A stretch of DNA of 64,000 nt from assembly GCA_964354935.1 (NCBI GenBank), contig CAYHBT010000001.1, positions 10,751-74,750 on the forward strand, written 5' to 3'. Made by a program: the position numbers and the translations under genes. Shown here piece after piece: positions 2 to 1,861 of this stretch. Source of the stretch: an uncultured Candidatus Saccharibacteria bacterium. Its GTDB lineage: Bacteria; Patescibacteriota; Minisyncoccia; Phycocordibacterales; UBA9973. The notes beneath the pieces are model-generated. The model did no database searches and was not told the DNA's origin. It saw nothing but the letters and a program-made list of their open reading frames with translations. Every line of letters begins with the position of its first letter. The first letter of the stretch is position 1.

Positions 2-1861
2 TTCGCTTTTGCCAAAAAATTCAATATTCCTTTACATGAAGTTGTTGAACCGCTTTTTGTTGATACTAGTAGTATTAGTGGAGTTCAAAATGATAAGCCT
101 TTTGTTGAACGAGAAGTTATTTCGGCTATCGTCAAACATTGGTCCGAAGACAAATATATAGGCCTTAGATGGAAAAAGGTTAATTGGGGAACTTTTATTA
201 CTGGCGGAGTAGAAGATGGTCAGACACCCGAAGAAGCGGCGCGAAGAGAAATAGAGGAGGAAACAGGTTACTTTAATTTCAAATCAGTTAAGGTCTTAGG
301 ACGTTCTTATAGTAAATTTTATCATGTACCGAAAAAGCAAAATCGTTTTGCGCATTTTACTAATTTTTATTTTGAATTAAAAAATGGAGAACAGAAAGTA
401 ATTTCGGAAGAAGAAAAAGGCAATCATGACATAGTCTGGCTTAAACCCGAAGAAATAGAAAATTTTATTACAGCCGAAGGCCAGAGACGCGATTGGAATT
501 TAGTGCAGGGAACAGAAAAAGCCATCGCAAAAAATGGAATTTTACTAGAACCATTAGAATTTAAAGGCAGGGAATGGGGTGAAGTGCGGGAAGATGTTAT
601 TAATTTTATTGTCAAAAATGGCTGGGGAGAAAGAAAAGTAAACTACAAACTCCGCGACTGGGTTTTTTCGAGGCAGAGGTATTGGGGCGAGCCTATACCG
701 GTGGTGCATTGCGCTAAGTGTGGCGTAGTCCCTGTTCCGGAGAAAGATTTGCCGGTGGAATTGCCGAAAGTAAAAAATTATCAGCCGACGGATAGCGGAG
801 AATCGCCGCTCGCCAATATTACAAAGTGGGTAAATACGAAATGTCCAAAGTGTAAAGGGCCTGCGAAGAGGGAAACAGACACGATGCCAAACTGGGCGGG
901 AAGTTCTTGGTATTTTTTGAGATATGTTGATGCTAAAAACAATAAAGAGTTTGCAAGCAAGAAAAATTTGGAATATTTCACGCCAGTCGATTGGTACAAC
1001 GGCGGAATGGAGCATACGACTTTGCATTTATTGTATTCTCGTTTCTGGCATAAATTTTTATATGATTTGAAAGTCGTGCCTACCAGCGAACCATATATGA
1101 AGCGTACTTCGCAAGGAATGATTTTAGGCGAAGGGGGGGTAAAAATGTCGAAATCTCTCGGGAATGTGATCAATCCGGACGATATTGTGAAAACCTACGG
1201 CGCAGACACTCTTCGATTGTATGAAATGTTTATGGGCCCGTTTGATCAATCAGTGGCATGGTCGTCGGAATCTATGATTGGACCGAGGAGGTTTTTGGAA
1301 AAAGTTTGGAGAATTGGATTTTCTATATCCTCGCCAAAGAAGAAAAATTCTTCGGCTTTCCTCCACCCTTCGGGCGGAACCTTCCGCCAGCAGAATTCTT
1401 CTTCTTTGGCTCGTCTCTTAAACAAAACCATCAAAAAAGTTTCAGAAGATATTGAAGGTATGAATTTCAACACGGCAATTTCCAGCATGATGATATTGGC
1501 GAACGAAATGGAAAAGACAGAAAATATTTCTATTGAAGATTATAAAATATTTTTAAAGCTTCTCTCACCATTTGCGCCACATATCTCGGAAGAGTTGTGG
1601 TCAATACTGGGTAATAAAAAGTCTATAAGTTTGGAATCTTGGCCGGCATATGATGTTTCTAAAATAAAAGACGATGAAATAAAAATTGTAATACAAATAA
1701 ACGGCAAACTTCGCGCAGAAATTATAATTCAAGCGGAAGACTCGGAAGAAAAAATCAAAGAAAAAGCTCTTGCAAACGAGTCTATTTCAAAGCATATCAC
1801 AGGTAAAAATATCAAAAAGGTAATATATGTAAAAAACCGACTTATCAACATTGTGCTGTAG
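2..1861 (+). CDS. leuS: leucyl-tRNA synthetase, C-terminal portion (5' end truncated by the window). Reading frame 2 is open from position 2. A Nudix-like domain lies upstream of the RDW/YWG catalytic motif.
   Basis: Carries [25 protein letters not shown] and KMSKS motifs and a class I LeuRS C-terminal anticodon-binding region. The frame is continuous upstream of the first Met, through to the listed ORF 503..1861. Confidence 0.9.
   Translation, partial: [619 protein letters not shown]

Follow-up and report, generated by a model that had tools for sequence, protein, structure and literature searches.

The question raised by this locus is why a gene for leucyl-tRNA synthetase (LeuRS) should hold a second, apparently complete enzyme domain of the Nudix hydrolase family, and what that domain does there. 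The gene, leuS, opens a 64,000-nucleotide stretch (the window) of contig CAYHBT010000001.1 from an uncultured Candidatus Saccharibacteria bacterium (assembly GCA_964354935.1). The data presented here make it nearly certain that an active-type Nudix domain is inserted in a functional LeuRS. They also suggest, with a rough probability of 0.55 for the reading as a whole, that the synthetase carries an autonomous nucleotide house-cleaning hydrolase. The parts of leuS that lie in the window are listed below, with amino acid (aa) positions counted in the encoded fragment.

2..1861 (+): 3' part of leuS, the C-terminal 619 codons and a TAG stop at 1859-1861, an uninterrupted open reading frame (ORF) in frame 2
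2..46 (+): last CP1 residues ahead of the insert, directly downstream of the off-window AHDERD, placed by alignment with relatives bearing GTGAxMAVPAHDERD-x-FAKKF
47..526 (+): inserted Nudix domain, aa 16-175 (EPLFVDTSS...LVQGTEKAI), recognised by PF00293, a family hidden Markov model (HMM), AlphaFold2 (AF2) and Foldseek
203..271 (+): Nudix box, aa 68-90, with Gln at position 7, Arg at 15 and the catalytic Glu residues at 16, 19 and 20
311..346 (+): X-loop region, aa 104-115, in which Phe106-Tyr107 form an aromatic pair at +16/+17 from the box and Lys111, Asn114 and Arg115 are near-invariant
527..625 (+): C-terminal remainder of CP1 after the insert, aa 176-208, aligning from T. thermophilus residue 369 and N. 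gonorrhoeae residue 390
626..700 (+): resumption of the catalytic core, aa 209-233, by alignment with LeuRS chains in the PDB
1142..1156 (+): KMSKS catalytic loop of class I synthetases, aa 381-385, within a PF00133 match over aa 217-409
1412..1750 (+): anticodon-binding domain PF08264, aa 471-583 (83 bits), after which the LeuRS C-terminal domain runs to the stop

Profile matches and a predicted structure agree that the insert is a real and complete Nudix domain. The PF00293 search that the sequence-only reading had proposed gave 58.0 bits for the whole fragment and 61.5 bits for the excised segment (E = 1e-15 to 1e-16) against a gathering cut-off of 21.1, and the family HMM, made from relatives, gave 218.8 bits across aa 16-169. 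The insert also aligns end to end with free-standing Nudix proteins of 156-189 aa. The box was read correctly at the outset: it agrees with GX5EX7REUXEEXGU at 22 of 23 positions (motif residues G68, Q74, R82, E83, I84, E86, E87, G89 and Y90), the sole deviation being Gln for the consensus Glu at position 7. The domain was first put at about 120 aa and proves to be about 160 aa long. The AF2 model of aa 16-175, built from a 51-sequence alignment, has a predicted local distance difference test score (pLDDT) of 95.7 and a predicted template modelling score (pTM) of 0.89, and its helix at insert residues 61-73 spans the box. This bears out the earlier suggestion of a full Nudix fold, which is predicted to be independent and not part of the canonical editing or Leu-specific domain.

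A Foldseek comparison of the AF2 model with the PDB returned 530 matches at E <= 0.001, of which the best 50 were all Nudix-fold proteins. The closest folds (2azw, 3i7u, NudI, RppH, Ndx1 and CT771) have target-normalised TM-scores of 0.63-0.80 at 15-22 % identity. These are small bacterial enzymes, namely E. faecalis MutT/nudix (2azw), the A. aeolicus diadenosine tetraphosphate (Ap4A) hydrolase (3i7u), T. thermophilus Ndx1 (1vc8), which acts on diadenosine hexaphosphate (Ap6A), C. trachomatis CT771 (4mpo), E. coli RppH (4s2x/6vcp) and NudI (6dt3). They share with the insert the alpha/beta/alpha fold, the catalytic helix motif and a similar size. None of them, however, lies within a second enzyme. 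Among 188 embedded copies of the domain, the box residues are kept almost without exception (E16 in 187, E19 in 185, E20 in 188 and G22 in 185), and E16, E19 and E20 are retained in 37-40 of 40 free-standing copies. Conservation of the three Glu residues points to a Mg2+- or Mn2+-dependent pyrophosphohydrolase activity.

The host enzyme appears to be an ordinary bacterial-type LeuRS. The window fragment scores 511.6 bits on the bacterial LeuRS model TIGR00396, below the cut-off of 548.4, because about 347 N-terminal residues lie off the window, as the sequence-only reading had recognised in placing the N-terminus outside it. Alignments of the fragment start at about residue 348 of relatives of 957-964 aa, and by comparison with three of these (P0124, P0125 and P0126) the full protein is estimated at about 960 aa. 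On the LeuRS equivalog model (cut-off 548), Nudix-bearing relatives of full length reach 749-998 bits, and the fragment matches solved LeuRS chains in the PDB at E = 1e-84 to 1e-99. Of CP1, the window contains 15 residues ahead of the insert and 33 behind it; the HIGH motif lies outside the window. In nearly all of the Nudix-bearing full-length LeuRSs examined, HVGH (HxGH), the T-rich motif TTRPDT and the editing motif GTGAxMAVPAHDERD are intact, as is KMSKS wherever the search pattern matched. To judge from these motifs, the Nudix insert is no substitute for a decayed editing site.

Canonical bacterial LeuRSs of known structure (T. thermophilus 1h3n/2bte, E. coli 4aq7/4arc and N. gonorrhoeae 6q89) have the core, CP1, anticodon-binding and C-terminal domains in common with the window enzyme, but a short variable loop where the latter holds 160 aa. 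The best PDB sequence match to the LeuRS body is Mycoplasma mobile LeuRS (3ziu, 336.8 bits), and the alignment with it extends to the last residues. The M. mobile enzyme is without CP1, which marks this region as a detachable and evolutionarily plastic module. It shows the opposite trend, having lost a module, whereas the window LeuRS has been loaded with an extra enzyme.

The position of the insert differs from that first proposed, which was after CP1 with an excess spacing of about 95 aa. It lies inside CP1, because the last ~33 residues of that domain come after it. LeuRS homology picks up again at aa 167-177 of the fragment, corresponding to residue 369 of the T. thermophilus enzyme and residue 390 of that from N. 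gonorrhoeae, and in full-length relatives the match to PF13603, the model of the editing domain, is split at position ~143-150 of 185, just ahead of the Nudix domain, which starts about 22 residues past AHDERD. AHDxRD and RQRYWG are 90 aa apart in an insert-free LeuRS (P0253), 225 aa in P0124 and about 230 aa in the window LeuRS, so that the excess is about 135-140 aa. These alignments place the Nudix domain in a CP1 surface loop that is short in the insert-free LeuRS compared. A model of CP1 together with a Q-type Nudix domain, as defined below, from a relative (P0005, 394 aa) has pLDDT 87.7 and pTM 0.81. The CP1 portion of this model can be superposed on 3pz5 and 2ajg, two isolated editing domains, with deviations of 2.1-2.5 A, and PDB chains cover at most ~188 of its 394 residues.

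No signs of a recent insertion event, whether in composition or as repeats, are visible in the window. A 19-nt direct repeat on either side of the insert, at 13-31 and 528-546 (79 % identical), was considered as a target-site duplication and rejected, as it is AT-rich, its second copy encodes a conserved LeuRS motif, and it is probably due to chance. Recent horizontal acquisition was likewise rejected on composition: GC content at third codon positions (GC3) is 0.263 in the insert and 0.412 in the rest of leuS, but among stretches of the same size in the other genes 12.7 % have a GC3 as low as the insert, and the difference is not significant.

The combination is far from confined to this gene. 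A scan of species-level genomes found about 20 with the LeuRS-Nudix chimera, labelled Patescibacteria, Saccharibacteria, Taylorbacteria, Parcubacteria and Gracilibacteria, together with a few short contigs whose labels are doubtful. An exhaustive search of 1.84 billion representative proteins (clusters at 50 % identity) yielded 127 proteins at E <= 1e-30. The survey of related LeuRSs that had been suggested found the insert in 125 cluster representatives, out of 136 new ones listed, and these are from Patescibacteria wherever the source is named. Forty-nine of the 125 look full-length (923-1330 aa, median 1089 aa). One example is P0125, GenBank KKP58971.1, 'Leucyl-tRNA synthetase [Candidatus Moranbacteria bacterium GW2011_GWF1_34_10]', which lies on a 970-kb contig. 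In the window itself the family HMM found no second copy of this Nudix family, and two more aminoacyl-tRNA synthetase (aaRS) genes, for a 721-aa class I protein of the I/L/M/V type (24597-26762, -) and a 497-aa class II protein of the D/K/N type (40011-41504, +), hold no inserted domain.

Some candidates from these searches were set aside. Short first-search hits (<460 aa), considered as a distinct small protein, were fragments from frameshifted contigs, and a flavodoxin joined to a LeuRS tail (P0109) was dropped because its contig is just 809 nt long. Apparently split LeuRS genes were explained by masked runs of N (L003 and L020) or by one in-frame stop (L007). The latter, at nt 3464-3466 of L007, is the single stop in an otherwise intact Nudix-bearing leuS, at a codon for Lys or Glu in relatives, and could be a sequencing error, a pseudogene or recoding.

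Patescibacterial LeuRS is a carrier with at least four permissive sites, which receive Nudix domains (sites 1-3), a RdgB/HAM1 ITPase, a HAD phosphatase and an alpha/beta serine hydrolase:

Site 1, from the N-terminal Rossmann half to the T-rich motif: 14 Nudix domains, and PF06821 alpha/beta 'Ser_hydrolase' modules
Site 2, past AHDERD, the position used in the window: 123 Nudix domains, with PF06821 behind the Nudix domain in L012 and L018
Site 3, in the catalytic core past RQRYWG: 3 Nudix domains, and a HAD_2 domain in P0155
Site 4, from KMSKS to the anticodon-binding domain: a complete RdgB/HAM1 domain in P0163

More than one Nudix domain is present in 13 proteins, and three in each of P0121 and P0122. 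On TIGR00042 (cut-off 145.35) the RdgB/HAM1 domain of P0163 reaches 179.1 bits, and the protein that contains it reaches 943.6 bits on the LeuRS model. Other enzyme modules were seen in the LeuRSs of L008, L009, L012, L015, L018, L074, P0155 and P0163, with lengths up to 1395 aa, and the LeuRS of L074 has PF06821 without any Nudix domain. Annotation has been misled in places: the 1330-aa LeuRS of the P0163 cluster (MCK5490653.1) is named 'RdgB/HAM1 family non-canonical purine NTP pyrophosphatase', and the LeuRS fragments P0004 and P0007 are named 'NUDIX domain-containing protein'. A further LeuRS-Nudix protein (L019, on contig CACYEG010000075.1, and P0049) has a divergent box (GTIKDGE...) and a long branch in the LeuRS tree. 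It comes from a rumen contig labelled 'uncultured Erysipelotrichaceae', which reflects either mis-binning or an occurrence outside Patescibacteria.

The Nudix domains themselves fall into two types. The E/R type has the canonical Glu7 and Arg15 and comprises 153 domains, nearly all of them embedded. The Q type has Gln7 with Ala, Met, Gln or Thr at position 15 and comprises about 55 domains, found in 37 of the 40 free-standing proteins and in a minority of embedded copies, including that of the window. The combination of Gln7 with Arg15 occurs in only three cases, the window's among them. The alignment and column counts revealed this whole subgroup and so ruled out that Gln7 is unique to the window gene; it is a subfamily trait, common to free-standing Nudix genes of ~160 aa. 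Positions 7 and 15 change together, which suggests a structural pair in which one change compensates for the other.

Free-standing Nudix proteins from metagenome contigs (P0010, P0012, P0016, P0043 and others) are 50-58 % identical to the window insert over their whole length and have Gln7, the motifs WKKVDW.TFITGG and PK..NRFAHF and the predicted fold in common with it. They differ at box position 15, which is mostly Ala or Met in these proteins and Arg in the insert. They are the products of separate genes for 156-189 aa, each of which has a start codon of its own and lies among unrelated genes (HAD hydrolase, cupin, ABC transporters), and one such gene lies directly downstream of a HAD-IA hydrolase gene. 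The possibility that the ~184-aa proteins are LeuRS fragments was ruled out by their own Met and a distinct N-terminal helix.

When the Nudix domain and the synthetase body were compared separately, their relationships did not agree. The window Nudix domain is 50-58 % identical to free-standing proteins, and 50-54 % to Q-type embedded domains, but identity falls to 37-45 % for the E/R-type domains that the nearest LeuRS relatives carry. The window LeuRS body is nearest to L004 (71.5 %, E/R type) and L063 (67.7 %, no insert), followed by P0134, L003, P0155, L011 and P0161 (all E/R type), and the body of the Q-type P0124 is 61.6 % identical to it. In 200 column bootstraps, the nearest Nudix neighbour was free-standing 196 times and never of the E/R type, and the nearest LeuRS-body neighbour was never of the Q type. 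All trees and neighbours were distance based (neighbour-joining or identity). The bootstrap run was used for type counts only, as large extra inserts such as that of P0155 inflate its identities, and the identities given above come from a separate comparison. Every Q-type LeuRS has E/R-type nearest body neighbours, except P0124 and P0257, whose bodies are identical. Because the two sets of relationships are discordant, the simplest reading of these sequence distances is repeated gain, loss or replacement of the Nudix module, including exchange with free-standing genes. A 149-aa LAGLIDADG_3 ORF was observed ~130 nt upstream of the free-standing gene P0043 and a GIY-YIG ORF ~3.5 kb from P0016; such homing-endonuclease-like genes near free-standing Nudix genes could be relevant to module mobility.

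We favour the reading in which the insert is an autonomous hydrolase carried by the synthetase, to which the probability of about 0.55 applies. LeuRS would keep its usual aminoacylation and proofreading, and the Nudix module would fold on its own as a self-contained Mg2+-dependent nucleoside-polyphosphate hydrolase. Its likeliest substrates would be compounds of the nucleoside triphosphate (NTP) or the dinucleoside-polyphosphate (ApnA) class, and its role would then be one of nucleotide house-cleaning. The tie to LeuRS would serve co-expression and co-localisation, with no wiring into the synthetic or editing active sites. Autonomy is suggested because members of this family, 55-58 % identical in end-to-end alignments, are encoded elsewhere by separate genes with unrelated neighbours, and because close LeuRS relatives have no insert (L063) or another Nudix subtype (L004). 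A fixed geometry seems not to be needed, because Nudix domains occupy three LeuRS sites (123, 14 and 3 domains) in up to three copies per protein. The house-cleaning theme is drawn from the RdgB/HAM1 domain of P0163, the HAD domain of P0155, several relatives with PF06821 and the HAD-IA gene before a free-standing Nudix gene. A weak hint to the substrate is given by the Tyr/Phe pair of the X-loop and by the Ap4A hydrolase, the Ap6A hydrolase and RppH among the fold neighbours.

Several points weigh against this reading. The trees behind it are distance based and not maximum likelihood, and they leave the number of gain and loss events unset. The pyrophosphohydrolase activity is deduced from sequence conservation. 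The insert reaches no Nudix subfamily model (the best, for RppH, gives 30.6 bits against a cut-off of 259), and all fold neighbours are at most 22 % identical, so that any substrate is a guess. The pTM of 0.81 for CP1 with Nudix suggests a defined packing of the two, which could bring their active sites together, and the recurrence of LeuRS as host could reflect a functional link. Finally, the window is without the N-terminal ~347 aa, and hence the HIGH motif and editing site of this particular enzyme are outside view.

The main alternative is that the Nudix domain hydrolyses a nucleotide made or held by LeuRS itself, either Ap4A or diadenosine triphosphate (Ap3A) formed from Leu-AMP and ATP or a mis-activated adenylate, with the CP1 tether placing the hydrolase at the source. 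We regard this alternative, which retains the Ap4A idea of the sequence-only reading, as doubtful, although it has several points in its favour. aaRSs synthesise Ap4A, LeuRS is the recurrent host in all 125 representatives, hydrolases of Ap4A and Ap6A and RppH are among the nearest folds, and the CP1-Nudix packing appears defined. The X-loop adds to this. Across 228 domains the column counts are Phe 156 and Tyr 52 at +16, Tyr 121 and Phe 87 at +17, Lys 218 at +21, Asn 201 at +24 and Arg 186 at +25, and in the window insert Phe106-Tyr107, Lys111, Asn114 and Arg115 are probable substrate and phosphate contacts. The X-loop is a specificity determinant of Nudix enzymes (PMC5389931), and a Tyr ~17 residues downstream of the box correlates with ApnA hydrolases (Dunn et al. 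1999, via PMC5389931). Phe106-Tyr107, at +16/+17, lie at about the position of this ApnA-type Tyr, which is a correlate and comes without a match to a dedicated HMM. However, the same Nudix family exists as a free-standing gene, close LeuRS relatives manage without the insert, and three sites with one to three copies argue against a required geometry. For the RdgB/HAM1 and HAD modules inserted alongside, no by-product of LeuRS suggests itself as a substrate, and an aminoacyl-adenylate is a mixed anhydride, not the pyrophosphate linkage that Nudix enzymes usually cleave.

A more far-reaching proposal would make patescibacterial LeuRS a dedicated platform, on which hydrolase modules are functionally coupled to aminoacylation (destroying Ap4A or aberrant adenylates made by the enzyme, or policing the ATP that it uses). 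A specific mechanism of recombination or insertion, and not rare accidents, would move the modules back and forth between defined sites in LeuRS and genes of their own. This we hold to be unlikely.

An RNA-directed activity, in which the domain would remove a 5' pyrophosphate or a nucleotide cap from RNA in the manner of RppH or NudC and be recruited through a tRNA-binding synthetase, is quite improbable. The best NCBIfam matches of the insert are indeed to RppH models (NF001934-NF001938), and E. coli RppH is among the fold neighbours at a TM-score of about 0.65. However, the RppH cut-offs are not reached: the best score is 30.6 bits against 259 and the others are 22-26 bits against 116-241. 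Those for the MutT 8-oxo-dGTP diphosphatase are not reached either (18.2 against 97.9 on TIGR00586 and 21.1 against 148 on NF008044). Mature tRNA has a 5' monophosphate, so that bound tRNA is no obvious substrate, and the free-standing orthologues and variable sites argue against dependence on LeuRS-bound RNA.

It is very improbable that the Nudix fold is non-catalytic and serves as a nucleotide-sensing, regulatory or purely structural insert of CP1. Non-enzymatic Nudix-fold proteins do exist (PMC5389931), and the subfamily has Gln for Glu at box position 7 and usually no Arg at position 15. Set against this, E16, E19 and E20 are kept in 185-188 of the 188 embedded and 37-40 of the 40 free-standing copies. 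Positions 7 and 15 also covary (Glu with Arg 153 times, Gln with a residue other than Arg ~55 times), which has the look of a compensated pair and not of decay.

The idea that the chimera is a misassembly, a dead gene or an element spliced out in the manner of an intein is effectively refuted, despite the many database hits that are fragments from frameshift-prone contigs and the in-frame stop of L007: no interruption of the ORF is seen in the window, nor in dozens of full-length proteins (923-1330 aa) that come independently from different studies, one of them on the 970-kb contig, the apparent truncations in L003 and L020 are masked runs of N, no intein, Hint or homing-endonuclease Pfam domain was found in the window protein or in the 26 relatives scanned, and the alignment of the insert with ordinary Nudix proteins runs from end to end.

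The accretion of enzyme domains by aaRSs is generally presented as a trend among eukaryotes. A precedent in bacteria is isoleucine--tRNA ligase with an N-acetyltransferase domain (NF040702, ileS_w_GNAT), known here from the name of the model alone, which is also a class Ia synthetase bearing an unrelated enzyme domain, although host enzyme and guest fold are both different from those of LeuRS-Nudix. The name indicates that such aaRS chimeras are a recognised category in bacterial annotation. The sequence-only reading had held that a Nudix module within an aaRS would be novel. That claim holds in so far as the literature searched in full text yielded no description of a Nudix domain carried by LeuRS, or by another aaRS, in these bacteria, and neither 'synthetase' nor 'tRNA' occurs in the text of the 2017 survey of the Nudix clan (PMC5389931). 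It needs qualifying in that the sequences were already public, annotated simply as LeuRS (e.g. KKP58971.1). The LeuRS-Nudix combination, its scale and the multi-hydrolase pattern in LeuRS thus appear undescribed, while both parts belong to well-known families.

The findings bear on how housekeeping functions are packaged in reduced genomes, since bacteria with very small genomes load one synthetase with up to several extra catalytic domains. If the favoured reading is right, nucleotide-pool sanitation (Nudix, ITPase and HAD) would have been tied repeatedly by salvage-dependent Patescibacteria to an essential, constitutively expressed gene. If instead the Nudix domain were to act on Ap4A or adenylates, LeuRS would be the first aaRS with a hard-wired connection to the clearance of the side products that it makes. 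The four naturally permissive insertion sites of LeuRS may be of use in protein engineering. In addition to the annotation errors exposed here, LeuRS is a common phylogenomic marker that bears large exchangeable inserts in Patescibacteria.

Other features of the window were observed in passing. A small palindromic repeat element lies in frame within protein-coding genes, at 1335-1412 in leuS and at ~59783-59866 in an FAD-linked oxidase ORF (59010-60860), and at related loci (L087-L119). It has a conserved core of ~55 nt, AAAATTCTTC.GCTTTCCTCCACCCT.CGGGCGGAACCTTCCGC..GAATTCTTC, and a copy-specific outer stem of 7-18 bp that is perfectly self-complementary in 24 of 28 distinct contexts. Folded as RNA, the element has energies of -35 and -43 kcal/mol, with z-scores of -5.5 and -3.8. 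Exact copies of the core were found in 33 metagenome loci, nearly always within ORFs of 300-920 aa, and when on the same strand the core is read in one frame, ..NS.A.LHP.GGTFR... Copies in the same host gene (L090/L118 compared with L094/L111) have wholly different self-complementary stems. The palindromic elements of Rickettsia resemble this element, which differs in that its outer stems vary, and it may be new. Two ORFs of ~221 aa with IS200-like Y1 transposase domains (PF01797, 24.5 and 37.3 bits) lie at 13131-13799 (+) and 17134-17799 (-) and may be connected with the palindromic elements.

A pyruvate kinase ORF (16224-17021, +) directly follows that of enolase (14995-16221). It encodes just 265 aa, with the barrel domain matching in two pieces and no match to the C-terminal domain. 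Two adjacent ORFs at 21647-22402 and 22485-23327 (+) have GC3 values of 0.175 and 0.189, compared with a window mean of 0.36; one has a weak match to His_Phos_1 and the other no Pfam match, and the pair may be foreign DNA.

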